A stretch of DNA of 64,000 bases from an uncultured Candidatus Saccharibacteria bacterium (GTDB lineage Bacteria > Patescibacteriota > Minisyncoccia > UBA6257 > 1-14-0-10-44-23). The translations under genes and the position numbers were made by a program. The notes beneath the pieces are model-generated. The model ran no database searches. It was not told the origin of the DNA and saw nothing but the letters and a program-made list of their open reading frames with translations. The stretch lies in contig CAZXKC010000001.1 of assembly GCA_964641225.1 (NCBI GenBank), positions 23,268 through 87,267 of the forward strand. The letters are read 5' to 3'. Shown here in pieces: positions 6,216-26,265 of the stretch; positions within the stretch are counted from its first letter, which is position 1, and every line of letters begins with the position of its first letter.

Positions 6216-6226
6216 ATTTTTTACAT

Positions 6227-6299
6227 TCCGGAGTAGTTCAGTGGTAGAACGCCTCGCTGTTAACGAGGATGTCGTAGGTTCGATCCCTACCTCCGGAGC
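6227..6299 (+). tRNA. tRNA-Asn (anticodon GTT)
   Basis: Cloverleaf read directly: acceptor tccggag/ctccgga, D arm tagttcagtggtagaac, anticodon stem cctcg/cgagg with loop ctGTTaa, T arm ggttcgatccc. CCA is not encoded. Confidence 0.8.
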
Positions 6300-9333: not shown

Positions 9334-9539
9334 ACGGGTAAGTCATCGTCTGTTCGCTTGTATCGGTCAGGATTGACCCGCTTATCAACCTTTAACGCCA
9401 AAGCAAAGAAGCCGAGCAGGTTGCGGCGTTCATCTTCGGTTAGGTCTTTAACGGACCAATCCGTTGGATTTTTTTCGGGTAGAGCGGACATAAAATAGCC
9501 TGATGGGTTCAGGCTACTGTATGCCTCACTTAAGTTTGC

Positions 9540-10811
9540 TTAATTTTTGACTACGTACTTTGGATTGAGCCGAGCAGAATGCTTCGTAAGCTCAAAGAGA
9601 TTTTCAACTTGCGGGATGTGTAGTTTCACTTTTCGGTTGAACTGATAAATCGCGTTTTTGACTGCCGTGTCATCCACGTCGTCGCCTAAAATCATTTCGC
9701 TAATTTCGCCCAAACTCCAGTCCGAATAAGTATTTTTTGGGTTATCAAAAATGACCCTAAGGACTTCTTTTTGGACCTGTCCCTGTATCCGTATCTTGTG
9801 CTCTTTCGCATCTTGGTCAGTTAAAATCAACATCCCGCTCTGGGACTGAAAACTTAAGTTCAGCTTAATCTCTTCGCTTTCGGCGGTATTTATGGTATTG
9901 CTCGCCATCTTTTCTTGCCCCGTCAGCGAACTCAACGTTATTGGCGTTGAGTGGAACTTCACGTTCCAAAGCTCTTTGTCGTTCCAATTACGCACCTTCA
10001 GCCGTCCCTCTTGCTCCAAATACGAAAGCACTTTTATTACCTCAAAATCTTCATTGGCTAGCGAAGTGAAGGGTATGTTGACGCTACCATCAATAAGCGG
10101 AAGCTCTTTGACAAACTTGTAGAAGTTTTCTAACTGCTTAGAAAAATATGACCTTTTCTTTTTGTAAATGGGTGGTTTGTCAACAAAATCATCGGCAGCA
10201 AACGATGCTAAGAAATCAGCGATTTTTTCGTTGAGCTTTTTTGCTTCGGCATCAATAAAAGTGAGTTCAAACTCAATATGCGGTGCGGCAATGTCAGAGA
10301 TGTTACTCAAGCTTTTAGCTGCTTCGCTTAACGAGGCGAAATCAATTCTGTCTCTCATCCTCGGAAAATCATTTTTGAAATCAAACTTTTTTTCTTTGTC
10401 ATTGATAGCTGCGTCCAATCTTGCCTCAGACATTTTCTTTAAGTCATAAATCTCGCCGAAAACGTACGTATAGTAACCAACATTTTCATCAGTTGGATTT
10501 TCAGTCATCACTGCTTCTCTTACGGCTCGCTCCAATAAATCAGAGAGGTTGATAACGCTGAGCCGTCTTATCTTGCCTATACTAAAAACTTCAATCATAT
10601 CAAAGACCTGATGGAGCACGAGGTGCTCTACTGAGCCGTGGTCATTTGTGTCTGTAATTTCGCTCTTGATTTCATCAATCTTCCAATAATTTCCTTTCAA
10701 AAATTGGTCTAAAGTAAAAACGTTTTGCCCGCGGTAAAAGCCCTCTAGCAAAATGTGCAGGGCCAGCAGGTTCAAATCGCGATTGAAGTAGTCAAAATGG
10801 TCTTCTTCCAT
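9540..10811 (-). CDS. Hypothetical protein (423 aa)
   Basis: Long ORF with an acidic/coiled middle and a possible winged-helix-like C-terminus. No recognisable family. Confidence 0.45.
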   Translation of the reverse strand: MEEDHFDYFNRDLNLLALHILLEGFYRGQNVFTLDQFLKGNYWKIDEIKSEITDTNDHGSVEHLVLHQVFDMIEVFSIGKIRRLSVINLSDLLERAVREAVMTENPTDENVGYYTYVFGEIYDLKKMSEARLDAAINDKEKKFDFKNDFPRMRDRIDFASLSEAAKSLSNISDIAAPHIEFELTFIDAEAKKLNEKIADFLASFAADDFVDKPPIYKKKRSYFSKQLENFYKFVKELPLIDGSVNIPFTSLANEDFEVIKVLSYLEQEGRLKVRNWNDKELWNVKFHSTPITLSSLTGQEKMASNTINTAESEEIKLNLSFQSQSGMLILTDQDAKEHKIRIQGQVQKEVLRVIFDNPKNTYSDWSLGEISEMILGDDVDDTAVKNAIYQFNRKVKLHIPQVENLFELTKHSARLNPKYVVKN

Positions 10812-10920: not shown

Positions 10921-11100
10921 GCCTAACCCTCGTGGGCAACTGCGAGGTATGGCGTTAGAAACTGTTCAGGTACATTAAGCTCGTCGTCAGAGCACCTGAA
11001 CAGTCGTATTCCGAAAGGGGTACGGGTGGCCGTAAGGTCATCGCTGGCGGCGAGCTTTGTGCTTCGCTGCTTGCAAAGGCATTACAAAACTGTTCAGGTA
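10921..11100 (+). ncRNA. Candidate structured RNA / leader element, copy A, directly upstream of the C5-methyltransferase start codon
   Basis: Multi-hairpin element with GNRA loops: ctcgtgg-GCAA-ctgcgag, cgtattcc-GAAA-ggggtacg and ggcc-GTAA-ggtc, plus a long-range 10-bp stem actgttcagg/cctgaacagt. A paralogous copy at 23766-23900 preserves every helix with compensatory changes. Confidence 0.4.
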
Positions 11101-12098
11101 TGCCCAAAAAAACAAAAGGGCGGTCAAAGCACCGCGTCGTTTCTCTATTTGCAGGTTCAGGCGGTCTTGATTTAGGTTTTCATCAGGCGGGTTTTGATAT
11201 TATTTGGGCGAATGACTACGACCATTGGTCCTGCGAAACGCTCAAGAAAAACTTTCATCATACGGTTGTTGAGAAGAGCGTCGTTGATGTAACCAATGAC
11301 GAAGTGCCTGAATGCGATGTCATTTTGGGCGGTTTTCCTTGTCAGGATTTTTCTATGATTTGGAAGCGTGGCGGGATTACGACCGACCGCGGAAATCTCT
11401 ATAAGCAATTTGTCAGACTGGTGAAAGCCAAGAAGCCAAAACTTTTTATCGGCGAGAATGTCCGAGGTCTGCTGACTGCGAACGGCGGTAAGGCGTTGGA
11501 GCAGATAGTTAAAGATTTTGCCGAGGTCGGCTATGACGTTGAAGTGAACAAGGTGAACTTCGCAGACTATGGAGCTCCGCAACTACGGCAGCGGGTTTTG
11601 ATAATTGGAGTGCGTCGTGATTTGGGACGTAAATATAAGCTGCCACCTGCGACGCATACGCCTGATACTTACGTCTCTGCAAAACAAGCTTTGGCGGGCG
11701 TTGAGAAAGCCCTCTACAACAATGAGCACCTCAACGTGCAACCGAAAACAGTGCAAATGTTGAAGCTCATACCAGCAGGTGGGAACTTCACTTCAATCCC
11801 TAAAAACTCGCCTTATTACGTCAAAGGGATGATTAGCCACGTTTACCGCAGGTTGCACCCAGATAAGCCGTCTACGACGATTATAGCGGGCGGTGGAGGC
11901 GGTACGTGGGGCTATCACTACAAGGAGCATCGGCCTTTAACCAACCGCGAAAGAGCCCGTTTATTTGGTTACCCAGACGATTATATTTTCATCGGCTCTA
12001 CGACCGAGGTACGCCGACAAATCGGCAACTCTGTCCCGACTGCGGGCATACGGCCGATTGCCGAAAGCATCCGTAAGTTCCTAGACGAAACCAATTAA
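11100..12098 (+). CDS. DNA (cytosine-5)-methyltransferase
   Basis: Motif I FAGSGGLDLGF, PCQ motif (GGFPCQDFS) and ENVRGL motif. Confidence 0.9.
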   Translation: MPKKTKGRSKHRVVSLFAGSGGLDLGFHQAGFDIIWANDYDHWSCETLKKNFHHTVVEKSVVDVTNDEVPECDVILGGFPCQDFSMIWKRGGITTDRGNLYKQFVRLVKAKKPKLFIGENVRGLLTANGGKALEQIVKDFAEVGYDVEVNKVNFADYGAPQLRQRVLIIGVRRDLGRKYKLPPATHTPDTYVSAKQALAGVEKALYNNEHLNVQPKTVQMLKLIPAGGNFTSIPKNSPYYVKGMISHVYRRLHPDKPSTTIIAGGGGGTWGYHYKEHRPLTNRERARLFGYPDDYIFIGSTTEVRRQIGNSVPTAGIRPIAESIRKFLDETN

Positions 12099-12099
12099 A

Positions 12100-13119
12100 A
12101 TGATTTATTCAAACGATAAACATTTTGGTGGGCCGATGATGGAAACCGTGAAGCGTGAGATGCAGCACTCAAGCAATGTTGCGATTGCCAGCGGGTACGT
12201 TTCAGGTGATGTACTCGGTCAGTTTGAAAATGATTTTTATCGCATTGCTGAAAGCGGAGGTACTGTGAAGCTTTTGGTTGGAATGGCCTTCTACGAAGGG
12301 CTTACGGGCAAAAACTTACAACGACTTCAGACGATAGAAAACCGACTACGTACAACGAACGGTCAGAGCGGTATATTCGTATGTTACTCGCGACCATTCC
12401 ACGGAAAAATCTACAGGTTCAAAAATGGGGGCGACTTTTCAACCTATGTCGGCTCTTCTAACTTTTCGCGTAGCGGACTGTCTGAAAATCTTGAGTGCAC
12501 GGCCGAGGTCAAAGACACCGAAACAGAAGCGGGTGTTGAGGGTTATCTTGATTTCCTTTTTGCCCCTGAAAATGCCGTCTCGGTCCTGAAGGCGGACATT
12601 ACCGTACACGGGTCAAAAGAGTACCTTGAAAGGGTTTCACTACGGACGCTGGATGACCTGCAAAAGTACGACCCGAAAACGATTGATAAGAAGACGCTGC
12701 CAGAGTTTGATTATCCGCTTTCTCGCATCGTTGGCTCTGAAAAATCAAGCTTGAATGTTTATTTCGGCAAAGGGCGTTGGGCTCGTAGTACGGGCAAGGT
12801 TGCCCCGCGACCGTGGTACGAGGTTGAGCTCATCGCGTTAAAAGCGATGACAGAAAACCCTTTGTATCCAAAGGGCGATTTTAAGGCGTTTACTGACGAC
12901 GGGTATGTTATCCCAATGCGGACCAGTGGCGACTACTTTAAGAACATTCGGTCCAAAGGAAACCTACAAATCCTCGGTCAGTGGATTAAGGGCAAGCTTC
13001 AAAAAGCTAACGCTCTCATTCCTCTGACCCCTGTTACGCAGGAAACTTTGGACAAATACGGCAACGACACAATCCGTTTCTATAAAATACGCGATGGCGA
13101 GTATTATGTTGAGTTCTAA
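12100..13119 (+). CDS. PLD-family (HKD nuclease, NgoFVII-like) restriction endonuclease, cognate to the upstream methyltransferase
   Basis: HKD motif FHGKIYRF...YVGSSNFSRSG. Starts 2 nt after the methyltransferase stop. Confidence 0.65.
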   Translation: MIYSNDKHFGGPMMETVKREMQHSSNVAIASGYVSGDVLGQFENDFYRIAESGGTVKLLVGMAFYEGLTGKNLQRLQTIENRLRTTNGQSGIFVCYSRPFHGKIYRFKNGGDFSTYVGSSNFSRSGLSENLECTAEVKDTETEAGVEGYLDFLFAPENAVSVLKADITVHGSKEYLERVSLRTLDDLQKYDPKTIDKKTLPEFDYPLSRIVGSEKSSLNVYFGKGRWARSTGKVAPRPWYEVELIALKAMTENPLYPKGDFKAFTDDGYVIPMRTSGDYFKNIRSKGNLQILGQWIKGKLQKANALIPLTPVTQETLDKYGNDTIRFYKIRDGEYYVEF

Positions 13120-13475: not shown

Positions 13476-13901
13476 ATGCTTAATTTCGGCGAAAAAGTTG
13501 AAGGCGTTGAGTATCGTGAGTTGCCCTGTGCTCGTGCTGTTATTCGTAATGACGAAGGCAAGTTTGCCTTTGTAGAAGTGAACGGGCAATACTTCTTGCT
13601 CGGTGGCGGGATGGAAAAAGACGAGACGCCAGAGCAAACGATTATCCGCGAATGTCTTGAAGAAGCAGGTGCTAGGGTTACCATTAGCCGAAAAATTGGA
13701 ACAGCTGGTGATTATCTATTCGCAAAAAAGGAGCAGGCGTATTTTCACAAAGTCGGCGAGTTTTTTGAAGCGAAAATAGAAGCGATAGTCCAAGATGGCG
13801 TTGAGACTGACCATAAGCTCGTATGGAGCACGCTGGAAGCAGCGAGGCCTTTTATTAAACAAAAAAGTCAGGAGTGGGCAGTTGAGCAACTTACTAAATA
13901 A
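13476..13901 (+). CDS. NUDIX hydrolase
   Basis: Nudix box GGGMEKDETPEQTIIRECLEEAG. Confidence 0.8.
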   Translation: MLNFGEKVEGVEYRELPCARAVIRNDEGKFAFVEVNGQYFLLGGGMEKDETPEQTIIRECLEEAGARVTISRKIGTAGDYLFAKKEQAYFHKVGEFFEAKIEAIVQDGVETDHKLVWSTLEAARPFIKQKSQEWAVEQLTK

Positions 13902-13904
13902 TTT

Positions 13905-14594
13905 ATGCAGCGACCCTACACAACACTCTTTATGCTCGTCTCGGTAGACGGCAAAATCTCTACGGGCGATACCGACCTATTGGATGTAGACAAAGATTTT
14001 CCGAAAATCGCAGGCCTCAAAGAGGGCTTGCAGCAGTATTACGATATTGAAAAGACAACCGATTTTTTCTCGCTAAACACGGGACGAGTTTTTGCGAAAG
14101 TCGGAATGAACACGAGAAAGGACGAACCAAAGCAGATACCCGTTACGTTCGTGCTCATTGATAACAAACCACACCTGACGAAGAATGGCGTCGTATATTT
14201 GTCCAAGAAAGCCCAGCGAACGCTTATTGTTACAACCAACCCCAAGCACGCAGCGTTGAAGCTTAATTTGCCCAATGTTGAGGTTATCAGCTACAAAGGC
14301 GAGGTTAATCTCAAGGACCTTTTTAAGAGGCTAGCGAAGAAATACGGGGCGAAGCGAATGACAATTCAATCTGGTGGAACGCTTAATGCAACACTAGTCC
14401 GTGAGGGGCTGATTGATAAGGTGCTGCTCGTTGTTGCCCCTGCGATGATTGGTGGAAAAAATACTTCTACGTTGATGGACGGACAGTCGCTACACTCAGC
14501 GAAGGAACTGGCGAAAATAAAAACGCTTAAGTTGATTAAGGCAGAGCCCCTTAAAAACTCATACCTACTTTTAGAGTATGAGGTTATCAAGTAG
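13905..14594 (+). CDS. RibD C-terminal / DHFR-like reductase family protein
   Basis: The N-terminal LFMLVSVDGKIS pattern and overall size match the RibD_C/dihydrofolate-reductase-like fold. Confidence 0.6.
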   Translation: MQRPYTTLFMLVSVDGKISTGDTDLLDVDKDFPKIAGLKEGLQQYYDIEKTTDFFSLNTGRVFAKVGMNTRKDEPKQIPVTFVLIDNKPHLTKNGVVYLSKKAQRTLIVTTNPKHAALKLNLPNVEVISYKGEVNLKDLFKRLAKKYGAKRMTIQSGGTLNATLVREGLIDKVLLVVAPAMIGGKNTSTLMDGQSLHSAKELAKIKTLKLIKAEPLKNSYLLLEYEVIK

Positions 14595-14610
14595 CACATC
14601 TAAACCAGTT

Positions 14611-15348
14611 ATGCCCGAAGAAGAAAAGAAAACACTATATATTTTCATAGATGAGTCGGGCAATTTTGATTTTTCGGAAAATGGAACGAAGTATTTTGCC
14701 CTTACCGCTGTTAGCAGCTTAACCCCGCTCAAATCAAGGGATGCTCTTTTAGCAAAAGTATACGCGACAAAATATAAGGGTTGGAATGAGGGGCGGGATG
14801 ATTATTATTTCCACGCGACCGAGGATAAACAGGAGGTCCGCGACTGGGTCTTCGCTGCTATCAAGCAGCTAGACGACATCGCAGTTGATGTCATAGTCGC
14901 ACAAAAAAATAAGGCAAATCCATCACTCTATATTGAGCGTGAATTGCAACCTAACTTTTCAGTAAAGACCGTCCGCTACGAAGAGAAGTTTTACGAAAAA
15001 ATCTCGCAGATGCTGCTACAATATATTTGCAACCGTTATCAAAACAAAGCAGATATTGGAAAGGTGGTAGTCATCCTCGGCTCTCTATTTACTGATAGAA
15101 AACGTGGCTATGTCCTTAAGAGCTTAAAGCAGTATTTGAGGGAGCATTTTTCTAAGCCCTCGTATATTTATTTCCACGACACATCATCTGACATTAACTG
15201 CCAGATTGCTGACTACTGCGGATGGGCTGCTTTCGTGAGAGCTGAACGAAACGAGCAAAGACCGTGGGCTGAAATTAAGGGCAAAGTGAAGAGCTGCTTT
15301 AACGTTTTTGATACTGGGACAACGGAGTATTACCAATATAAAAAATGA
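14611..15348 (+). CDS. DUF3800-family protein
   Basis: N-terminal LYIFIDESGNFDF is the DUF3800 signature. The Met at 14611 is preferred because the ORF start at 14578 overlaps the previous gene. Confidence 0.55.
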   Translation: MPEEEKKTLYIFIDESGNFDFSENGTKYFALTAVSSLTPLKSRDALLAKVYATKYKGWNEGRDDYYFHATEDKQEVRDWVFAAIKQLDDIAVDVIVAQKNKANPSLYIERELQPNFSVKTVRYEEKFYEKISQMLLQYICNRYQNKADIGKVVVILGSLFTDRKRGYVLKSLKQYLREHFSKPSYIYFHDTSSDINCQIADYCGWAAFVRAERNEQRPWAEIKGKVKSCFNVFDTGTTEYYQYKK

Positions 15349-15476
15349 CCAACCCGCCTATCCTTTCGGAAGAGCCCGAGGGCTCTTATCAGCGGGTTGG
15401 AACCTTTACTAGGAGTATACCTTATTTTCGCCAGAGAAGCAATCATTGTGTAAAAGGTCTATACTAATATAAACGT

Positions 15477-15716
15477 ATGAATATACCATTTCTTACAGAG
15501 CAGAAAGATGCAGCCTTAAAGGAATTAGGGGCAATATCAGGCAGCGAAAATCAAAAAAAGGAACGGATTTCAATCATTATCCAGTATCTTGCCTCGCTCC
15601 TTGAGCCAGATAGTTTTACCGAAGCTCAACGAGAGGATTTACGTAAACTATCCCTTGAGTTAGGTTTCAAGGAAGACACAGTATTTGCCGATTGGGTTAA
15701 GATTATCGCTCCTTAG
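15477..15716 (+). CDS. Small hypothetical protein (79 aa)
   Basis: ORF only. Confidence 0.35.
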   Translation: MNIPFLTEQKDAALKELGAISGSENQKKERISIIIQYLASLLEPDSFTEAQREDLRKLSLELGFKEDTVFADWVKIIAP

Positions 15717-15740
15717 CTAGGAGAGAAAAGTGATACGTCA

Positions 15741-16259
15741 ATGGGAAAACTTTTAATTATTTGTGGGCAAGAAGGTACTGGCAAATCCACGATTGCTAAA
15801 GCAATACTTCCTCATCTCAAAAATGGTGCTGCTTTTGATGCTGAGAATATCCTACAAGTAAACCCCTTTGAGTTTGATGAAAAGTTTAAGCAGCTAGCGA
15901 TTGATAATTCTGCCGTCCTTATCAACAGTTTTTTTGGACACGGCTGCGAAAGAGTAGTTGCTGGCAGCTTTATTGGCGATAGAGCGGGCTATGATGCCTT
16001 TAAGACGAAGCTGGAACATAGCCCAAAGGTTTTTATCGTTATGCTAGTCGCGTCTCAAGAAGTTCGCGACAAGAGGCGTATGGAAAGGGCAAAGCCGACT
16101 ACCAAAGAATGGAGGGACATAGCTGACGCAAAAGCCCCGAAAGATACGACGCTAGGTGCAGCTAAAGACGAGTATGACTATTACGAGATTGATAACAGTG
16201 GACTTACCGTTGATGAGACGATTGCCGAAGTCAAAAAGAAAATCCCTGATTTTTTCTAA
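15741..16259 (+). CDS. P-loop kinase (AAA_33 / chloramphenicol-phosphotransferase-like small-molecule kinase family)
   Basis: Walker A LIICGQEGTGKST at the N-terminus. Size of 172 aa. Confidence 0.6.
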   Translation: MGKLLIICGQEGTGKSTIAKAILPHLKNGAAFDAENILQVNPFEFDEKFKQLAIDNSAVLINSFFGHGCERVVAGSFIGDRAGYDAFKTKLEHSPKVFIVMLVASQEVRDKRRMERAKPTTKEWRDIADAKAPKDTTLGAAKDEYDYYEIDNSGLTVDETIAEVKKKIPDFF

Positions 16260-16264
16260 CTGAT

Positions 16265-17464
16265 ATGTCCTTAGAAGATAGCTACAATAAAATATATTCG
16301 CATAATGAAACTGTTTTTGGTGGCGAGCCAGAGCAAGTAGTTCGGAACGTGGTTAAATACCGTACAGCTGGCTCAGCCGTTGAATTAGGGGCTGGCGAAG
16401 GCAGAAACTCTTTATTTCTGGCAAGTAATGGTTTTGAAGTTTCGGCGTACGATATATCTAAAGTTGGCATAGGCAAAATTGCCAAGCGGGCAGCCGAGCT
16501 CAAACTTAATGTGCAAGCAGAGGTCGCAGATGTTCGTGCCTTAAATCTACAACGTAATTTTGACGTTGTAGCGTCCACGTATATGCTTCATCATCTCTCG
16601 CGAGAAGAAGCACTGGCGTTGGTCAAACGAATGCAAGAACATACCAACCCTGAAGGGTTAAATGCAATTACTGTTTTTACTAAAAGTGGCGATTTTTACA
16701 AAGGTAATCCCGAAACTGACCGATTTTATCCAGACGCAGGCGAATTAAAAAGTTTATATGCTGAATGGGATATTTTAGAGTATGAGGAGCTTGAAGTTCC
16801 AGCTGTTGATACAAAACCAGATGGAAGTCAGATGTCTAATGTGGCTGCCCGATTGCTGGCGAGGAAAATGCAAAAAAGCCCCATTGAACATAGTTCAAAT
16901 AATGAGAAGTCGGCAGCCTTTGAAACGCTCTATCAAGGTATGCTTGCTCAAGATGGAGGGTTTGTTGAGTATTCCTTACCGTACCCTAAATATGATTTTC
17001 TCAATTTCTTAGTAAGAGAAAAGGGCGTTCTTTTGCACGGTTCAAATCAGCCAGATATTCGCGAGCTTGAGCCAAAGCAGGCGAATTGTAAGTCAAAAAA
17101 GTTTGGCAATATGCAAGCAGTATATGCTACCCAAGACAGCATCCTACCACTTTTTTTCGCTGTTAGAGACAGGAGTAAGATGCGTGGCAGAACTGAAAGT
17201 GGTTACAGAGAAGAATATGTTGATGGTCAGCAGAAAAAAACATACGGCTTCGCGGTAAGTAGTCAGGCAGTGCTTAATTCAAATCCTTGGTTGGATGGCG
17301 TTGTCTATATTCTTCCAAGTGATAGTTTTGAACAGGGCACTGACGATGAAGGGCATCAAATTGATGAGTTCGTGAGCCGTACGCCAGTGAAAGCAATAGC
17401 AAGGTTGCGAGTTGGGCCAGAAGATTTCCCTTACTTAGATAAAGTTACCATAAAGGAGAGTTAG
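16265..17464 (+). CDS. SAM-dependent methyltransferase (TehB-like N-terminal domain) fused to a ~200-aa C-terminal domain of unknown function
   Basis: VELGAGEGRNSLFLASNGFEVSAYDIS is methyltransferase motif I, followed by an acidic motif II. The C-terminal half was not recognised. Confidence 0.55.
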   Translation: MSLEDSYNKIYSHNETVFGGEPEQVVRNVVKYRTAGSAVELGAGEGRNSLFLASNGFEVSAYDISKVGIGKIAKRAAELKLNVQAEVADVRALNLQRNFDVVASTYMLHHLSREEALALVKRMQEHTNPEGLNAITVFTKSGDFYKGNPETDRFYPDAGELKSLYAEWDILEYEELEVPAVDTKPDGSQMSNVAARLLARKMQKSPIEHSSNNEKSAAFETLYQGMLAQDGGFVEYSLPYPKYDFLNFLVREKGVLLHGSNQPDIRELEPKQANCKSKKFGNMQAVYATQDSILPLFFAVRDRSKMRGRTESGYREEYVDGQQKKTYGFAVSSQAVLNSNPWLDGVVYILPSDSFEQGTDDEGHQIDEFVSRTPVKAIARLRVGPEDFPYLDKVTIKES

Positions 17465-17479
17465 CCTAGAAACAGCCCT

Positions 17480-18538
17480 ATGAATTACACCGAGACAGAA
17501 GAATATCAGCGTCAAATCAAGGAGCAGTATAGCTCGCGGGTTAAAAAGTTCGCTCCAGTTGATGTTGAGAAGGTCCTGCATACTTTGGGCATTGAGGTCG
17601 GAAAGGATGACCTTAAGCCAATCACAAAGGGCAATATGAACGCTACCTACGTAGCACCCGCTTTGGTTGTAAAAATTAACGAGGATAAAAAGACGGCAGA
17701 CTATGCAGCGTATGTTGTAGCCTCGTCGCTAGCTGATAAGCATCCGATACCGAAGGTTTTGGCGTATGACCACTTTGATAAAACGGCATACGAAGTACTT
17801 GTAACGACCAGATTATCAGGTCAGACACTCATTGATACCATTTTTGACCTTGACCAAGCTGCTCGTGAGAAGCTCTTTAGCCAGATGCTTGATGTCGTAG
17901 ACGGACTTTTTACTATGAGGTTTGATAGCGTCGGGCACTTTCGTAACCCAGAGGAAAAGTTTGCAACATACAGCGAGTACCTTCGGCACAGCTTAATGCA
18001 ATCCGCTGACCAGATTAAACGGCAGAAAACGTGGGATGCCAGTGATATAGATAAAATCGTTGCCTATGCCAGCAAGCATCTCAACGTATTTGATGACGAG
18101 AAAGAGTGCACCTTTGTACATACGGATTTGCATATGGGCAATATCCTGCACGAAGGCGATAAGCTAACAGGCCTGATTGATTTTGACAGTGCCTTTCGTG
18201 GCCCACGCGTTGCCTCATTGCCGATGATTTTGGGGTTTGTCTTCAATCCGCAGCAATACACCGAGGGAAGCGACTACTTCCCGAAATACAAAGGGCAGCA
18301 ATTCCTGTATTTCCTGCCAATCCTGAAAGCTCGCTGGCCCGCTGTTTTCAGCGACCCGCAACTACTACGAAAACTCAACCTGCTTAATATCATTGAAAAT
18401 CTGGGCTGGGTTGCCGACAACTGGTCAAAAGAGTGGAACAAGCAACTTATTGATATGTTCTTCGCTACAGAAATTGATAAGGACCTTAAAGTTTCGTACT
18501 TCGGGCAGCGACTGGAAAGTGGTTCTTACGTCGGTTAA
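17480..18538 (+). CDS. Aminoglycoside/choline-kinase-fold phosphotransferase (APH family)
   Basis: Catalytic loop FVHTDLHMGNILH and the metal-binding IDFDSA motif. Confidence 0.75.
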   Translation: MNYTETEEYQRQIKEQYSSRVKKFAPVDVEKVLHTLGIEVGKDDLKPITKGNMNATYVAPALVVKINEDKKTADYAAYVVASSLADKHPIPKVLAYDHFDKTAYEVLVTTRLSGQTLIDTIFDLDQAAREKLFSQMLDVVDGLFTMRFDSVGHFRNPEEKFATYSEYLRHSLMQSADQIKRQKTWDASDIDKIVAYASKHLNVFDDEKECTFVHTDLHMGNILHEGDKLTGLIDFDSAFRGPRVASLPMILGFVFNPQQYTEGSDYFPKYKGQQFLYFLPILKARWPAVFSDPQLLRKLNLLNIIENLGWVADNWSKEWNKQLIDMFFATEIDKDLKVSYFGQRLESGSYVG

Positions 18539-18673: not shown

Positions 18674-19735
18674 ATGAAAGACGCGCGTGTTAATCCTTCC
18701 GAGGCAATAGAGATATTTTCTCTATTAAAAATAGAGATTGAGGGTTATACTAATTCAGTGTATACCAAGAACTTATATCTCAGTTCGGTGACTCGCAGCC
18801 TTGTCATGCTTACTGATTATTTAAAGCTTTCCTCTTCGATATCGTTAACAGATGCGAATAAGCTTAGCGAAGATTTTTTTTGTGGTTTATTGAATCTTAT
18901 TTTTGGATACAATCTCCAGAACTTAAATTCCGGTAAGCAGAATTATCCCGCAATTGATCTTGGGGATAAAGACAGAAAACTTTCAGTGCAAGTTACTATT
19001 GATAATTCGAGCGAAAAAATCAAAAAAACACTTTCGATTTTTGATGCAAATAATGTTGGAAAAGAATACCAGCGTGTTATTGTGTTTATCGCGGGATATA
19101 AGCAGAAACGTTACAGCGTTGAATTTACAAGTTCGAACATAAATTTTTCAAAAGGTGATGATATTCTAGATCTGAATGATCTAGTTAAATCGATCGCAGC
19201 AAGCGATACTAAAAAAATTTGCGAAATTGATAAATATCTAGAGAAGGAGCTTGTTTCAAAAATTCAAGGATCCAATATTGATCCTACGCGTTTGCTGGAT
19301 GAAGATATTCGAGATATCTTAGGGGCAATATCGGATTTTATTGAGAATAAAAATGAAAAAGTCATTCACAATGAAACTGTTATCGTGCGAGATGAAAATT
19401 TTATTGAAAGAAAAAACGAATTAAATAATATATCGGAAATATTGTTCAATAACGAGATAACGCCCAGCCTAATTTATTCAGAGCAGGTCAAAAATTTTCT
19501 AATTAATCCTATCAATAAAAATCACTTAGCAAAATATCTGTCAATAACTCATAGGATCCAAGTCGATTACAAACGAGGGATGGCGGATCGAAAAATTGAA
19601 GGCGTCGAGTTCGTATTTAGAAAAATTTTCGAAGGTTTGACTGGGCAATATAATAATCGTCATTTAGACAGCACAAAAATCCTTATTGTGCTTCATAATA
19701 TGTATTTTAATTGCGATATCGGGCTGAATCCTTAG
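18674..19735 (+). CDS. Putative effector component of an ABC-three-component (ABC-3C) system, possibly SMEK-domain type
   Basis: 353 aa, AT-rich. First gene of a tightly packed three-gene operon. Domain assignment is from recollection of operon architecture and is tentative. Confidence 0.45.
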   Translation: MKDARVNPSEAIEIFSLLKIEIEGYTNSVYTKNLYLSSVTRSLVMLTDYLKLSSSISLTDANKLSEDFFCGLLNLIFGYNLQNLNSGKQNYPAIDLGDKDRKLSVQVTIDNSSEKIKKTLSIFDANNVGKEYQRVIVFIAGYKQKRYSVEFTSSNINFSKGDDILDLNDLVKSIAASDTKKICEIDKYLEKELVSKIQGSNIDPTRLLDEDIRDILGAISDFIENKNEKVIHNETVIVRDENFIERKNELNNISEILFNNEITPSLIYSEQVKNFLINPINKNHLAKYLSITHRIQVDYKRGMADRKIEGVEFVFRKIFEGLTGQYNNRHLDSTKILIVLHNMYFNCDIGLNP

Positions 19736-19739
19736 TTTT

Positions 19740-19976
19740 ATGCTCAAGCCGACAAAATATACTAATCTTCAAACCTCAGTAGTCTCTCTGGCAGCAGAGA
19801 TTTTGAAGATATTTTCTCATAACAAAGTTTTGCAGTATGATGATCTTTTCAGAAAAATCATTGATAGGAAAGGCAAAGAAGCGAAGGAGAACTTTCTTCT
19901 CGCTCTTAATTTCTTATTTTTGTTAGGCAAAATCGAGTATTACCAAAAGGGTGATTTATTTGAATACCGAAAATGA
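19740..19976 (+). CDS. ABC-3C middle component (small ~78-aa protein)
   Basis: Small ORF sandwiched between the effector and the ATPase. Its stop overlaps the next start in an ATGA junction. Confidence 0.45.
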   Translation: MLKPTKYTNLQTSVVSLAAEILKIFSHNKVLQYDDLFRKIIDRKGKEAKENFLLALNFLFLLGKIEYYQKGDLFEYRK

Positions 19977-21739
19977 AGATTAAGAAAATTTATTCAAACA
20001 ACATAGCAATGCGCCCCATTTTATTTAATGAGGGTTTTTGTGTAGTGTATGGCGATGTTGAAAAGCGCAATGATAGAAACGAACATAATCTTGGCAAGAC
20101 TTCATTGGTGCATTTGATCGATTTTTTGCTTTTAAAAAAGGGCGGGGAAAAGCACAACATTTTTAATAAATATAAAAATAAATTTTCTGGATGGATATTT
20201 TTCATTGAACTTGATTTGGGCAACAGTCAGTATTTAACTATAAAAAGAGGGGTAGATAAATCGAGCGAGGTTTCTTTCAAATCGCATAGTAATTCTAACC
20301 AAGATTTTTCCACAGAGACTAGCTGGGATCGCAAAGATACTAAGCTTTATGCAAAAAAAGAAGAAAATTCTGTAGCGATTTTAGAAGAATATTTAAATTT
20401 TGATGTCGCGGCAGATTATGGGTATAGACATTTTTTGGCATATCTCCTAAGAACACAATATGATTACGTAGATGTTTTTAAGATGAACCAATTTGAAGGT
20501 AAGGACGTTGACTGGAAACCCCACCTTTTTAGTCTTCTGGGGTATTCCGATCAGAATGTATTAAAAAAATATCGAATTGATATTGAAATCGGCAACATCA
20601 GAAATATTTTAAAAACAATTGTTGGGGGATCTGATTTTATAAATCAGACATATACGATAAAGGCTGCTATCGCTGAAAGAGAGAAAGAGAAGAAGCAAGC
20701 GCAAGATAGTTTAGATAAATTTGATTTCTATATGAGAGAGGCGAAGCTCAACAAGGAGTTAATTGAAGAAATCGAATCTGGCATATCAAGATTCAACTCT
20801 GAAAGATATAGGATTGAATACGAAATCAATAAAATTAAAGTTTCTTTAGAAAATGGCCCCACTTTTTCATTGGAAGAAATAAAAAAGGTGTTTGATGAAA
20901 CTAAGCTATATTTTCCTGATGATCTTAAGAAGGGTTATCAAGAAGTTATCGAATTTAACACTAATCTTTCCGCTGAGCGATCCAAGTATCTGAAGGAGAT
21001 GCTAAAGAACAATTTAGATTATTTGTCGGAGATTAAAGCAAAGCTCGAAGATCTTAACAAAAACAGGCAGCAGGTTCTGGCTGTTTTAAGAGAGGGCGAT
21101 ACTTTCAAAAAGTATAAGGCATTGCAAGAAAACATCGGCAAGATTAATGAACAAATTCATCAGTATGGAGAAAAATTAAAGAGTCTCGACACTGCCGAAA
21201 ATTATAACCAGAAAAAATCTCTTTTAAGAGATGAGTCGAAGCAAGCTGCAAAGTTAGTCAAGGAAACTATTGATCAGGGAAGTGAAATTTTTGATTCTAT
21301 AAAACAGCTGTTTACGGAAATTTATAAAGATACTATGGAAAACACTGCCGTGCTAGTCGTTCGACCAAACTCAGAGGGTAATCCAGAATTCGAAGCAAAG
21401 ACCTTAGGCGAAGATCCTGATCAATTGACCGGTAAAAGCGAAGGATACACATCTACGAAAGTACAATGCGCAGCTTTTGTTCTAGCCATTTTAGCCGTCT
21501 ATTCTTCTTTGGGTAAAAGATTTTTTAAATTCGCCTATTATGATGGCTTATTCGAGGGATGGGGCGATAATCCGAAAATTAAATTTATCGAGACTATAAG
21601 AGATTTTTCTGATAAGTATGATATCCAATACATCGTTAGTATGATTAAAAGTGATGTACCCGTAGGTTTTGAGTTTAATGAAGGAGAAGAAATAGCAAAA
21701 TTAGATACCGAGCATACTCTCTTTGGTATTAATTTTTAA
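19973..21739 (+). CDS. ABC-3C system ABC-type ATPase with a long coiled-coil insertion (SMC/Rad50-like architecture, DUF2326-like)
   Basis: Degenerate N-terminal P-loop (NLGKTSLVHL), a ~250-aa E/K-rich coiled-coil middle, and a C-terminal segment with a Walker-B-like hhhhDG motif (KFAYYDGLFEGW). Confidence 0.55.
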   Translation: MKIKKIYSNNIAMRPILFNEGFCVVYGDVEKRNDRNEHNLGKTSLVHLIDFLLLKKGGEKHNIFNKYKNKFSGWIFFIELDLGNSQYLTIKRGVDKSSEVSFKSHSNSNQDFSTETSWDRKDTKLYAKKEENSVAILEEYLNFDVAADYGYRHFLAYLLRTQYDYVDVFKMNQFEGKDVDWKPHLFSLLGYSDQNVLKKYRIDIEIGNIRNILKTIVGGSDFINQTYTIKAAIAEREKEKKQAQDSLDKFDFYMREAKLNKELIEEIESGISRFNSERYRIEYEINKIKVSLENGPTFSLEEIKKVFDETKLYFPDDLKKGYQEVIEFNTNLSAERSKYLKEMLKNNLDYLSEIKAKLEDLNKNRQQVLAVLREGDTFKKYKALQENIGKINEQIHQYGEKLKSLDTAENYNQKKSLLRDESKQAAKLVKETIDQGSEIFDSIKQLFTEIYKDTMENTAVLVVRPNSEGNPEFEAKTLGEDPDQLTGKSEGYTSTKVQCAAFVLAILAVYSSLGKRFFKFAYYDGLFEGWGDNPKIKFIETIRDFSDKYDIQYIVSMIKSDVPVGFEFNEGEEIAKLDTEHTLFGINF

Positions 21740-21768
21740 AGTTACCCAATTCTTTAAATCAGAAATAT

Positions 21769-23121
21769 TTATGCCTGGATTCGCATGCAGATCAACTTGT
21801 CCTTGACCTCGATCTTGCTTTTGATGCAGGCAATAATCTCCCTCTTTTCGTCCTTTGTTCCGTTAAGAAGGGTATGCTTTACGTAGTTTCGGACATCGGC
21901 ATCGCACGTTGCCCGATCAAATTCAGTTTCACGGCCAAGCACCGTGTAGCTGAACTTTTTATAATGGTTGATTTCTTTCTCAATTTTTTCTTTGATCGCA
22001 ATTTCGTCTACGTCAATTTTATCAATCAGGCGGACAAGCTGCTGCGCTAGATCCTCCTCGCGGATCGGTTTCTGTTTACAGTAGCGGTCACGCGATTTGG
22101 TGCAGTGATAGTAGACATATCGATTCTGGCCACCATCTTTAAGCTTTTTGAATTTTTCCTCTGCTGTTATCCCTGACTCGCAGCCACCGCAATAAAACAA
22201 GCGGGTAAAGTTAAATTCATTCGTGCCAGGGTGCCGCCGTGCTGGCATAAGCATGTTAGCCCTCGCTTTTAGGTAGAGATCTTTATCAATAATCGGATCA
22301 TGCGCTCCCTTATACCATTTGCCGCTTCCAACAGGGTATTCGAACTCTCCGTAGTAGAAGGTATCTTGGAGAATTCTGAAAATCCCGCTCAATGCAATCC
22401 TTTTGCCGGATCGAGTCGTAATATTTTTTTCTTGCGTTAGCCAAGTGTATAAATCCCTGCCACTCGCATTTTCGTAAGCCACCTTCTCAAACATCTCCTT
22501 TACTATCGGTCCACGAATCGGATCAATCGTCATTTTCTTTTGACCCTTATCCGCAAACTTATCGTGCAGATACCCAATAGGTGGCAATCCTGGCCGCCAC
22601 CCCATTTCGCACTTTGCTCGTAGTCCTCGCTTCACATTTTCACCTTTATGGTCATTTTCCAATTTTGCCTGACTGCACAGAATCATAAGCAAGAATTTTT
22701 CGTTCGGTGAATTCGTAAATCTTTGGCCATGAGTTCTGATATCAACTAGAGCTTTTTGGTCCATCAGATCAACGATACTGCCAAGGTCGCCCGCATTTCT
22801 GCTAATACGAGATGGATCCCACGCGATAATACCGTTGAACATACCCTTGCGGATATCAACGATCATCTGTTGGAATACAGGTCGTTGTCCTGACTCTTTT
22901 GCCGAATGAGATTCGCGGCGCACCTCGGCAACCTCGATACCTTCGCGCGCTGCCATCGCTAACATTTCGTTGATCTGCGAATCAATGGAGAGAGCCTGTA
23001 ATTCGTCCTGTTCGCTAGATTTTCTGGCATACAGGCAATACCTGACGTTTATTTGAGGTTGTTCCTTCCTTTGGACGCCAACTCCCGGCACATCTTTTAA
23101 TTGTGTATTTTCCATATACAC
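21769..23121 (-). CDS. Large serine recombinase (paralog of the 30660-32258 gene)
   Basis: YARKSSEQDELQALSIDSQ catalytic motif. Shares FYYGEFEYP and YYHCTK motifs with the third recombinase. Confidence 0.85.
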   Translation of the reverse strand: MYMENTQLKDVPGVGVQRKEQPQINVRYCLYARKSSEQDELQALSIDSQINEMLAMAAREGIEVAEVRRESHSAKESGQRPVFQQMIVDIRKGMFNGIIAWDPSRISRNAGDLGSIVDLMDQKALVDIRTHGQRFTNSPNEKFLLMILCSQAKLENDHKGENVKRGLRAKCEMGWRPGLPPIGYLHDKFADKGQKKMTIDPIRGPIVKEMFEKVAYENASGRDLYTWLTQEKNITTRSGKRIALSGIFRILQDTFYYGEFEYPVGSGKWYKGAHDPIIDKDLYLKARANMLMPARRHPGTNEFNFTRLFYCGGCESGITAEEKFKKLKDGGQNRYVYYHCTKSRDRYCKQKPIREEDLAQQLVRLIDKIDVDEIAIKEKIEKEINHYKKFSYTVLGRETEFDRATCDADVRNYVKHTLLNGTKDEKREIIACIKSKIEVKDKLICMRIQA

Positions 23122-23937: not shown

Positions 23938-24459
23938 ATGGATCAGAAAACTAAGCAGTGTCCGAAGTGCAAGATGGAGATTCCGTTCAAGGCAACAAGA
24001 TGCCCTCATTGCAGAGCTGGTCAGCACAGTAAATTAGCCGTCATATTGGCAGTTATTATTTTCGGGTCGCTCTTCATCCTTTTCCTCAGCGACATGTTCT
24101 CAAGTGATACGCCCGCCCCAACGCCAACTATTCCTGAGTTTGTAGAAACTGTTTCTGCGATACGACTCATGAATGCCTATAAGGAAAACGAAGTAGCTGC
24201 GGACAGCCAATATAAGGGCCACCTTGTCGAAGTTCACGGCACTATCGATACCATCGGGAAGGATATCTTGGACACACCGTATGTGAGCCTCAAAGCAAGC
24301 TACAATCAGTACGACTTTGGTACAGTACAGTGCATGTTCGACAAGAACAGCCAATCCCAGCTCGCCTCGCTTTCCAAGGGCACTGAAATCACCCTCCATG
24401 GACGCGTCAGTGGCAAGCTGGGAAATGTCATCGTTCGGGACTGCTCTATAGTCCCTTAA
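23938..24459 (+). CDS. Zinc-ribbon plus single-TM protein with a C-terminal OB-fold-like extracytoplasmic domain
   Basis: N-terminal CPKC...CPHC zinc ribbon, a TM helix (LAVILAVIIFGSLFILFL), then a ~120-aa domain. The Met at 23938 was chosen because the upstream part of the ORF is the RNA element. Confidence 0.5.
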   Translation: MDQKTKQCPKCKMEIPFKATRCPHCRAGQHSKLAVILAVIIFGSLFILFLSDMFSSDTPAPTPTIPEFVETVSAIRLMNAYKENEVAADSQYKGHLVEVHGTIDTIGKDILDTPYVSLKASYNQYDFGTVQCMFDKNSQSQLASLSKGTEITLHGRVSGKLGNVIVRDCSIVP

Positions 24460-24947
24460 TCTTCCGTTTCTGAGTCTTCCGCAATCTTGTCATCCCCAAG
24501 CTCTGACCAATCTTCATTCTTAGCGGTACCCATAATACTGGCGAATGCTTTGACTGCTCGCTGAATCTCTTCTAGTCGTTCAGGAGACAGCGGTTTATTC
24601 AGGCGTACCAACTCATCAAATCGTTCGCGCTCTTCCTTTGCCAGTGGTTCCATGAAGATTGAACGCACCGGGATATACCGCTTGTCGTTATGGATCAAGA
24701 AAAACTTAATCGCAGCCATATTGCCGTCTTTAACATTCTTCAGGAGAGCCGACTCAGCCATGTCGACCCAGACGGAACGGCCAACGAGAATTGCATCATC
24801 AACTCGCACCTTAAAGAGCTCATCCTCCTTCATCCACCTATATACGGTGGTACGTCCAATACCTGATTTCTTGCAGGCGTAGTTGATCTGCGGAGCCTCC
24901 TCAAGTATTTCAAGAAACTTGAGTTTCTCCTTTGCGCTCTTTGCCAT
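24456..24947 (-). CDS. HTH DNA-binding protein resembling a phage terminase small subunit / Psq-type HTH
   Basis: LKFLEILEEAPQINYACKKSGIGRTTVYRWMKEDELF helix-turn-helix at the N-terminus, with an acidic C-terminal tail. Confidence 0.45.
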   Translation of the reverse strand: MAKSAKEKLKFLEILEEAPQINYACKKSGIGRTTVYRWMKEDELFKVRVDDAILVGRSVWVDMAESALLKNVKDGNMAAIKFFLIHNDKRYIPVRSIFMEPLAKEERERFDELVRLNKPLSPERLEEIQRAVKAFASIMGTAKNEDWSELGDDKIAEDSETED

Positions 24948-26265
24948 ATATCTTCACACGCTTCTTACCTGAATACTTCTCCCAACGGTGCATGATGACC
25001 TCTGCGTACGTTGGTGATTTCTCCATGATGAAGCAACGACGCCCGATCATGTTGGAGGCAATTAAAGTGCTACCGCTACCACCAAACGGCTCTAAGACGA
25101 GCTGACCCCGCTTGGTAAGGACCTTGATATATGGGATGAGAATCTCAGTGGGCTTTACGCCAAAGATGATAGCCTGGCCCGATGACTTCTCATCTGCGGC
25201 ATTGAAATCTACGAAGTCAGTTGGGCAGTACTTCTTACCTTTGCCATACGCTTCCCAGTGCGGACTGCCTGAGATGGCAAAAAGCGCCGTCTGATATTCG
25301 TTCATCACCAGCTCGTTTTCGTCCTGTAGATTGAGTCCTGAATGAGGTTCGCTGGTACCGACCATAGCGATGTCGTGTTTGGAGAAGAGCTTGTGCTTGC
25401 CGGAGTAGCCCTGATTTCGATTAGGCAGCCGCCAAACAATCATGTTGCGGACTTTCCAGTGTTTCTCGATCTCACCCCAGATCTCTCTAAGGTTCTTCCA
25501 GTTCTCGTAACAGATGATGGAGAAATCTTTAGCCTGCACCTTCGCCACGTTATTCATCCAGAGAGTCGTGAAGTCTTCAGGTAAGACATCAGTTTCTAGA
25601 TAACGGCGGTTTTTCTTGGTACCAAAACCAACCGTCGGCTTACCGTTACGGGTTTTACCTTTTAAGTAATCGAGGCGGTACGGAGGATCAGTCATGACCA
25701 TATCCGCCTTCTCATTACCCATGAGTGCGAGCATGTCAGCCTCTATGGTGCTGTCACCGACCATGAGGCGAGAACCATCCAGATCGTATATGTCACCCTT
25801 CTGTGCGGCGATGCTGGTGATGTTAAGCTTGTCGAGCTCCTCCTGCAGATCAAATTCCTGTTCAACTTTCTCTTCTTCAAAGATTCCATCCAGTTCTTCA
25901 GAACCAAAGCCGACGTCAGCCAAGAATGACTCATCAAACTCAGCAAGTAACTCAAGGTCAAATTCACCCTGGTTTTTGTTGAGACGAAGATTGAGCTCCT
26001 TCTCCTTGGCGAGGTCAGGAATATTCACGAACACTACGGGTACCTCTGCGTATCCAAGCTCTTGGAGAACAGAGAGTCGAAAGTTTCCGCCGATCAAGAT
26101 ATTCTCTCGACCCTTGCCGTTATTCACGATGAGTGGGTCAACGACGCCAAAGCGTTTAATGCTCTCCTGTAAGCCAGCAGCCTGCTCTTTGTTGTGCTTA
26201 CGTGGATTGTACTCGGCTGGCTTCAACTGCGAGAGCGGGACGTACACTACTTCTAATTTTTGCAT
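24910..26265 (-). CDS. ParB-like nuclease domain fused to a DNA N6-adenine/N4-cytosine methyltransferase (phage-type orphan MTase)
   Basis: N-terminal ParB box (LKPAEYNPRKH...GNFRL). Methyltransferase motif IV DPPY (MVMTDPPYRLDY) and motif I FGGSGSTLIAS. Confidence 0.8.
   Translation of the reverse strand: MQKLEVVYVPLSQLKPAEYNPRKHNKEQAAGLQESIKRFGVVDPLIVNNGKGRENILIGGNFRLSVLQELGYAEVPVVFVNIPDLAKEKELNLRLNKNQGEFDLELLAEFDESFLADVGFGSEELDGIFEEEKVEQEFDLQEELDKLNITSIAAQKGDIYDLDGSRLMVGDSTIEADMLALMGNEKADMVMTDPPYRLDYLKGKTRNGKPTVGFGTKKNRRYLETDVLPEDFTTLWMNNVAKVQAKDFSIICYENWKNLREIWGEIEKHWKVRNMIVWRLPNRNQGYSGKHKLFSKHDIAMVGTSEPHSGLNLQDENELVMNEYQTALFAISGSPHWEAYGKGKKYCPTDFVDFNAADEKSSGQAIIFGVKPTEILIPYIKVLTKRGQLVLEPFGGSGSTLIASNMIGRRCFIMEKSPTYAEVIMHRWEKYSGKKRVKIYGKERKGETQVS

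Follow-up and report, generated by a model that had tools for sequence, protein, structure and literature searches.

A probable short Lamassu (ABC-three-component) operon with an SMEK-type effector in a Patescibacteria chromosome

Type II Lamassu systems, known as LmuACB or DdmABC, are ABC-three-component (ABC-3C) systems (10.1101/2025.06.23.660979; 10.1101/2025.03.14.643221), in which an effector (LmuA), a middle component (LmuC) and an SMC-like ATPase (LmuB) are encoded in that order. Lamassu is proposed to derive from SbcCD/Rad50, and the survey that describes this origin, which began from the ABC-3C predictions of Krishnan et al., lists SMEK, HNH and lipase domains as effectors specific to short Lamassu and reports clades from which LmuC or the effector domain has disappeared (PMC12663957). 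Lamassu has been assayed with both phages and plasmids, and cryo-electron microscopy structures of it appeared in 2025 (10.1101/2025.06.23.660979; 10.1101/2025.03.14.643221), while complex formation, DNA-end sensing, release and oligomerisation of the effector, and protection by abortive infection are known only for the systems of Vibrio cholerae, Salmonella enterica, Escherichia coli (with a lipase) and Bacillus (10.1101/2025.03.14.643221; 10.1101/2025.06.23.660979; PMC12663957). The operon considered here lies at 18674-21739 on the forward strand of a 64,000-nucleotide stretch of contig CAZXKC010000001.1, hereafter the window. An initial annotation, made from the sequence alone, had taken it for an ABC-3C-type conflict system of a kind with essentially no experimental characterisation, a description that the assays and structures now available for the family have left out of date (10.1101/2025.06.23.660979; 10.1101/2025.03.14.643221; PMC12663957).

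In the characterised systems, a complex of one LmuA, two LmuB and one LmuC (LmuA1-LmuB2-LmuC1) sequesters the effector as a monomer, binds DNA ends and hydrolyses ATP slowly, and the released LmuA forms a tetramer with active nuclease sites through its C-terminal domain (CTD) (10.1101/2025.06.23.660979; 10.1101/2025.03.14.643221; PMC12663957). The LmuA of Bacillus type I carries CTD12, while that of V. cholerae carries CTD7 and works with an LmuC of the MC3 class (10.1101/2025.06.23.660979; 10.1101/2025.03.14.643221). With a probability of about 80%, the operon in the window is a complete short (type II) Lamassu/ABC-3C system of an SMEK-effector subtype, residing in the chromosome of a bacterium of the candidate phyla radiation (CPR)/Patescibacteria.

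Three forward-strand open reading frames (ORFs) make up the operon, at 18674-19735 (353 amino acids, aa), 19740-19976 (78 aa) and 19973-21739 (588 aa). The stop codon of gene 1 (19733-19735) is separated by a gap of 4 nucleotides (nt) from the ATG of gene 2 at 19740, and the TGA of gene 2 overlaps the ATG of gene 3 as ATGA at 19973-19976, which agrees in every coordinate with the translationally coupled operon described earlier. The arrangement is far beyond chance, as judged by the profile matches of its products and by the recurrence of the same three-gene order in 77-80 of 80 related loci of other species. Profile searches also bear out the original assignment to the ABC-3C systems, with matches to CTD12, to the middle component MC8 and to the PADLOC LmuB model.

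The first gene encodes the LmuA-like effector, and the suggestion that it might be of the SMEK type is upheld by matches to SMEK_N in Pfam (PF21941, 2.5e-41, residues 39-174 in the numbering of the 353-aa ORF) and in NCBIfam (NF033859, 1.1e-27). Its C-terminal part matches the 'C-terminal domain 12 of the ABC-three component systems' (CTD12, PF20279) at 1.4e-7 over residues 205-350, and a locally built CTD12 hidden Markov model (HMM) raises this match to 6e-51. The SMEK_N nuclease domain thus occupies approximately nt 18788-19195 and the CTD12 docking/oligomerisation domain approximately nt 19286-19723, which is the layout of an LmuA-type effector, an N-terminal enzymatic domain followed by an ABC-3C CTD. 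The longest ORF runs from the ATG at 18674, but the homologues, at 321-329 aa, begin (MYT...) where V29 of this long ORF falls, and a GAGGG at 18740-18744 precedes that position; hence the true start is probably the GTG at 18758, giving a gene at 18758-19735 and a protein of 325 aa rather than 353 aa. Residues D95, L96, Q106, T108, K115, T119 and K143 are invariant in the effector family, D60, G97, D98 and D166 are nearly so, and every invariant residue is retained in the present copy. In PADLOC, the effector matches the Argonaute-associated 'REase' model at 1.1e-38. Moreover, the SMEK domain finds the SMEK/Mrr-APAZ protein of Kordia jejudonensis (PDB 26bh) at 1.4e-37 with the family profile and at 1.9e-12 with the single sequence. 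The SMEK_N match, the restriction-endonuclease fold and the conserved acidic and lysine residues all place the domain among the SMEK/Mrr-like PD-(D/E)xK nucleases, and the effector is best read as a putative DNase of the PD-(D/E)xK/Mrr-like class, with D95, Q106 and K115 as putative active-site residues.

The second gene (19740-19976, forward strand) encodes the LmuC-like protein, a 78-aa match to the ABC-3C middle component MC8 (Pfam PF20295, 5.9e-16) with weaker matches to MC6 and MC7, so that a small middle component stands between the effector and ATPase genes as it does in Lamassu.

The third gene (19973-21739, forward strand) encodes a 588-aa LmuB-like ABC ATPase of the DUF2326/YydD family, identified through Pfam, PADLOC, AlphaFold (AF2) and Foldseek. 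Its Pfam match is DUF2326 (PF10088) at 1.2e-13 over residues 449-588, and in PADLOC it matches PDC-M68B at 3.3e-41 over its full length and LmuB at 1.2e-10. The N-terminal half of the head holds the Walker A motif HNLGK42T and the Q-loop glutamine Q162, the C-terminal half holds a signature-like motif at G491 and the Walker B segment FAYYD524-G525 with E528 nearby, and an antiparallel coiled coil spans approximately residues 194-455; no CxxC hook was found in this coiled coil. Motif conservation, scored in an alignment of 25 family members, corrects one point of the initial annotation, which had called the N-terminal P-loop degenerate: the loop is intact (GK42T), H38, G41 and K42 are invariant and T43 nearly so, and the only peculiarity is a variable insertion that precedes the GKT. 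Likewise Q162, G491, D524-G525, E528 and Q552 are invariant or nearly so. The C-terminal Walker-B-like segment noticed earlier is genuine and reads hhhhDG in 23 of the 25 members, the other two having an Asp after the D524 position. This motif lacks the catalytic glutamate, while E528, four residues after D524, is nearly invariant. The Gly of hhhhDG is outside the consensus hhhhD[Q/S/T/E] given for the Walker B of short Lamassu (PMC12663957), and the motif would be a small variation on a known theme. Because the catalytic glutamate is missing, and by analogy with other LmuB proteins, it is read as a sign that ATP hydrolysis would be slow or absent and that ATP binding would act as the switch.

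The AF2 model of the ATPase (predicted local distance difference test score, pLDDT, 86; predicted template modelling score, pTM, 0.70) consists of two β/α head halves, residues 1-190 and 456-588, and long helices at 194-455, so that a coiled coil divides the predicted Rad50/SMC-like head in two, as the initial annotation had anticipated. In Foldseek, the best match of the model is that of Bacillus subtilis YydD (9a6c, 1.5e-22, TM score 0.56), followed by LmuB chains, namely the V. cholerae type II protein (9uxh_F, 5.4e-14), those of Salmonella (9hqx and 9hqu) and the Bacillus type I protein (9ux7_A, 6.2e-9), and the heads of SMC, Smc5/6, Rad50, SbcC, RecN and JetC are interleaved among and below the LmuB chains. 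Motifs, predicted model, Foldseek matches and the PADLOC LmuB match together describe an SMC/Rad50-like, split-head ABC ATPase of ~600 aa, the kind of ATPase that Lamassu employs.

The three genes recur together well beyond this genome. A search of 5.8 billion proteins returned 127 relatives of the ATPase, all of them DUF2326 proteins and named 'YydD (DUF2326 family)' by JGI, and an exhaustive search of cluster representatives returned 909 clusters at E ≤ 1e-3, of which 279 were at ≤ 1e-30. The closest relatives share 65% and then 54-58% identity and come mostly from metagenome-assembled genomes (MAGs) of Patescibacteria; an exact look-up of the ATPase on public contigs gave no record. In a survey of one genome per GTDB species, 172 ATPase relatives were collected and 80 loci were kept, and the order effector (CTD12), middle component and ATPase recurs in ~80 species across many phyla. 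A CTD12-bearing ORF lies directly upstream of the ATPase in 77 of the 80 loci, two of the exceptions being contigs cut just upstream, and 80 of 81 loci have an ORF of 76-102 aa that ends where the ATPase gene begins, in most cases overlapping it by 4 nt as here; three of these small ORFs at related loci were confirmed as MC8. The SMEK_N domain is confined to the 13 closest loci, those with an ATPase at least 42% identical to the present one. In the remaining loci, the effector has another N-terminal domain with a DGG.D...QAKH motif, which was recognised as Mrr_cat in two of four cases examined, and at some related loci the effector has no N-terminal domain at all (186-188 aa) and still retains CTD12, in keeping with the Lamassu clades without an effector domain reported before (PMC12663957). 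Thus, exchangeable effector N-domains (SMEK, Mrr_cat or none) sit on a constant chassis of CTD12, MC8 and ATPase, and such effector swapping is the defining behaviour of ABC-3C/Lamassu. In addition, 38 plasmids, among them 22 conjugative ones, carry homologues at 30-35% identity, and there PGAP names the products 'ABC-three component system protein', 'ABC-three component system middle component 8' and 'DUF2326 domain-containing protein', and no homologue of the system was found in a phage genome collection.

Among the described systems, type II or short Lamassu (LmuACB, that is DdmABC, of V. cholerae and LmuACB of S. enterica; PDB 9uxh, 9hqu, 9hqx and 9NY5) shares with the present operon the gene order effector, middle component and SMC-like ATPase, an ATPase of ~600 aa whose coiled coil is short and whose Walker B is deviant, the lack of a zinc hook seen in the V. 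cholerae protein, an effector composed of an N-terminal enzyme and a C-terminal ABC-3C CTD, and an ATPase fold that matches at 5e-14 to 8e-11. The solved type II structures differ, however, in having Cap4, CTD7 and MC3 in place of SMEK (an Mrr-like restriction-endonuclease fold), CTD12 and the 78-aa MC8, as well as DQ rather than DG in Walker B, and sequence searches detect no similarity between the ATPases. Type I Lamassu (LmuAB) of Bacillus cellulasensis (PDB 9ux7) has the same CTD12 on its effector (10.1101/2025.06.23.660979) and a similar ATPase fold (6e-9), but it has a Cap4 nuclease and no middle component, whereas here an MC8 gene and an SMEK nuclease are present. B. subtilis YydD, which was modelled together with YydB (PDB 9a6c, an integrative model), belongs to the same Pfam family (DUF2326) and is the best structural match, yet it is only 15% identical and its partner is YydB rather than an SMEK protein; no functional study of YydD was found in the literature consulted. 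The SMEK/Mrr-APAZ protein of the K. jejudonensis short prokaryotic Argonaute (pAgo) system has a homologous N-terminal nuclease and is likewise the effector of a sensor-controlled immune system, although its sensor is a guide-loaded Argonaute engaged via APAZ, whereas here the sensor would be an ABC ATPase engaged via CTD12 and the middle component. The SMEK-APAZ/pAgo heterodimer is reported, in work cited by PMC10810196, to cleave guided DNA targets.

A working model of the operon can be drawn by homology with the solved Lamassu complexes, to which the present locus contributes its architecture, motifs and folds. In this model, two copies of the 588-aa SMC/Rad50-like ATPase (LmuB) would fold their short coiled coils together and, joined by a single 78-aa middle component (LmuC, MC8), would hold one effector (LmuA) by its CTD12, keeping it monomeric and inactive. 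When the ATPase/middle-component module meets aberrant DNA, for example free double-strand ends or hairpin or palindromic replication intermediates of a phage or plasmid, ATP-dependent engagement of the heads would release the effector. The freed effectors would then oligomerise via CTD12 and unite their SMEK domains (Mrr-like, with a restriction-endonuclease fold) as an active DNase, and indiscriminate degradation of DNA would abort the infection.

Several observations weigh against the assignment to Lamassu. Searches of the PDB with the ATPase, either as a single sequence or as a profile, returned coiled-coil noise only and no sequence-level link to LmuB, and for this reason the connection is carried by the fold and by the PADLOC LmuB model (1.2e-10). 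PADLOC itself places the ATPase under a separate computational candidate, PDC-M68B, and not under Lamassu; the CTD in the full-length effector model matched no solved LmuA; the middle component is a 78-aa MC8 as against the MC3 of the structurally characterised V. cholerae LmuC; and the hhhhDG Walker B of 23 of the 25 family members falls outside the published hhhhD[Q/S/T/E] of short Lamassu (PMC12663957). Furthermore, a literature search found no experiment on defence, stoichiometry, trigger or nuclease activity for the SMEK/CTD12/MC8 subtype.

These observations leave room, albeit limited, for the operon to belong to a sister family of Lamassu, a DUF2326/YydD-like 'PDC-M68' candidate with the same architecture and another trigger or logic, for instance a sensor that binds ATP and never hydrolyses it, or a stabiliser of the adjacent serine-recombinase element that acts in addiction or against plasmids rather than in phage defence. 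Such a reading is considered unlikely. It draws on the PDC-M68B score, which is far better than that of LmuB (3.3e-41 against 1.2e-10), on YydD rather than LmuB as the top structural match, on the deviant Walker B, on a 53%-identical serine recombinase that accompanies the system in a second genome, and on the action of V. cholerae Lamassu on plasmids as well as phages (10.1101/2025.03.14.643221). The effector and the middle component match no PDC-M68 model, and a literature search for 'PDC-M68' found no paper. Against the sister-family reading, the Pfam domains CTD12 and MC8 are defined within ABC-3C, and the original type I LmuA also has CTD12 as its CTD (10.1101/2025.06.23.660979), which makes the chassis one held in common with validated Lamassu; in addition, the Lamassu survey that started from the ABC-3C predictions includes SMEK effectors (PMC12663957), and a recombinase adjoins the system at only a minority of the related loci. 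A further reading, decidedly speculative and somewhat less likely still, is that the DUF2326/MC8/CTD12 branch, with its conserved hhhhDG Walker B and 78-aa middle component, is mechanistically distinct from the characterised Lamassu, for example as a non-hydrolysing ATP-binding switch with another nucleic-acid trigger, and that in CPR episymbionts it travels with a serine-recombinase element and directs its policing at DNA traded with the host bacterium and not at phage.

A further alternative, that the operon is the decaying, non-functional remnant of a horizontally acquired cassette, is very unlikely. The low-GC island beside a recombinase might suggest it, as might the status of the proteins as singletons in a collection of 15 billion proteins and the outcome of a promoter and terminator scan of the operon, in which nothing exceeded shuffled expectation and fewer sites were found than in shuffled sequence, a result of little information. 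Against this, all three ORFs are full length in comparison with their homologues (588, 78 and ~325 aa) and free of frameshifts, every invariant residue of their families is kept and the gene overlap is preserved. The AT-rich island noted at the outset is real, with GC contents of 0.32-0.37 across 19001-22000 and of 0.337 for the operon versus 0.443 and 0.445 for its flanks. Nevertheless, all 12 of the related SMEK loci compared likewise have an operon poorer in GC than its flanks, with a deficit of 3-18 points at 11 of these loci and of less than one point at the twelfth, and low GC is therefore a trait of this family of systems and neither a sign of decay nor proof of transfer; its use as proof of recent transfer was accordingly rejected.

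The reading as a housekeeping ATPase for DNA repair or chromosome maintenance (of the SbcC/Rad50, RecN or SMC type) with accessory proteins and no conflict system can scarcely be entertained, because the SMC, Rad50, SbcC, RecN and JetC heads in the fold search (1e-11 to 1e-7) are expected from the proposed SbcCD/Rad50 origin of Lamassu (PMC12663957), whereas no Pfam or NCBIfam model of SMC, RecN or SbcC was matched but only DUF2326, an ABC-3C middle component and a nuclease with CTD12 and SMEK domains take the place of Mre11/SbcD or a kleisin as partners, the ATPase has 588 aa and, despite the ABC head and coiled-coil fold that it shares with SbcCD/Mre11-Rad50, a much shorter coiled coil without a zinc hook and no Mre11/SbcD phosphoesterase beside it, and its patchy distribution across phyla, presence on conjugative plasmids and atypical GC mark it as accessory, mobile DNA. 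A conventional SMC, RecN or SbcC identity with the normal partners is also what the initial annotation had named as grounds for giving up its proposal, and neither the family matches nor the neighbours are of that kind.

As a probable short Lamassu, the operon adds an intact example of the SMEK-effector subtype from an ultra-small CPR/Patescibacteria bacterium, a group with a poorly explored anti-phage repertoire. The nearest relatives of the system are likewise found in Patescibacteria MAGs, and in one of these an orthologous serine recombinase stands at the corresponding site, a hint that the cassette is exchanged among CPR genomes. For the field, the result is confirmatory, as the family, its domains and the general mechanism are already described and annotated automatically, and its modest interest lies in the CPR host, the SMEK subtype, the DG Walker B and a serine recombinase with which the system may be linked.

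The non-coding stretch upstream of the probable effector start (18706-18744, forward strand), as read from the sequence, contains repeats, a hairpin and the GAGGG. The motif AATAGAGA(T) is present in two direct copies (18706-18714 and 18730-18738) and one inverted copy (18719-26), which form a hairpin or palindrome with an 8-bp stem and a 5-nt loop at the point where GC drops, and the GAGGG that follows the repeats is a likely ribosome-binding site. The stretch may serve as an operator or leader, and the AATAGAGA repeat was not conserved in the upstream regions of the 12 related SMEK loci.

Downstream, a large serine recombinase gene (21769-23121, reverse strand; Pfam Resolvase, Recombinase and Zn_ribbon_recom) is oriented convergently to the operon, and 30 nt separate its end from the ATPase gene. 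It is possibly the mobilising gene of the cassette. In a Patescibacteria MAG (locus L002), a 53%-identical recombinase (9115-10440, reverse strand) occupies the same convergent position downstream of a homologous system, which hints at co-mobility, and more distant recombinases lie near the system in loci L080 and L009; a search for att-like repeats flanking the cassette and recombinase found only short, chance-level ones. Altogether, three large serine recombinases are encoded in the window, at 6287-7768, 21769-23121 and 30660-32258, and the second and third, both on the reverse strand, are 39% identical to each other. The first, a 493-aa ORF on the reverse strand, overlaps with its end the 3' end of tRNA-Asn(GTT) (6226-6301, forward strand) and is followed by a gene for a Phage_CRI-like rolling-circle replication protein (8182-9333; weak match, 3.3e-4) and by a 423-aa ORF, an arrangement that resembles a small element inserted at this tRNA. 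Elsewhere, in a Parcubacteria MAG (locus L011, ~180-320), the SMEK Lamassu operon begins ~70 nt after a sequence resembling a tRNA 3' end (…GGGAGTTCGAATCTCCC…), and this arrangement, judged by its sequence, would fit integration at a tRNA.

Besides this tRNA-Asn, the window contains genes for NusG, Tmk and GatB. The GatB protein shares 72% identity with proteins that bear the name Candidatus Harrisonbacteria, its other matches being in Parcubacteria/Patescibacteria MAGs, which identifies the host as a CPR bacterium.

The restriction-modification pair that the initial annotation had placed directly beside the operon exists, but it is found upstream at a distance of 5.5 kb, and six unrelated genes separate it from the operon. 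It is of type II and comprises a C-5 cytosine methylase (11100-12098, forward strand; PF00145, 1.3e-78) and, as its partner, an NgoFVII-type endonuclease of the PLD family with a B3-like DNA-binding domain (12100-13119, forward strand). The intervening genes (13476-18538, forward strand) encode, in order, a NUDIX protein, a RibD_C protein, a DUF3800 protein (PADLOC DUF3800_VII, 1.6e-7), an AAA_18/nSTAND3-like P-loop protein, a TehB-like S-adenosylmethionine-dependent methyltransferase (399 aa) and an APH-family phosphotransferase, and these co-directional accessory genes perhaps belong to a defence or accessory island.

On the other side of the operon, a 451-aa fusion of ParB_N with an N6/N4 DNA methylase (24910-26265, reverse strand) overlaps a small helix-turn-helix (IS630-like) ORF (24456-24947); ParB_N-methylase fusions of this type are common on mobile elements. 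Further downstream, a giant ORF of 2543 aa (36018-43649, forward strand) combines SpvB, FG-GAP and RHS-repeat regions with two Laminin_G_3 domains, and its product, to judge from these domains, is a putative Rhs/Tc-toxin-like polymorphic toxin or surface protein, which is notable in a reduced CPR genome.

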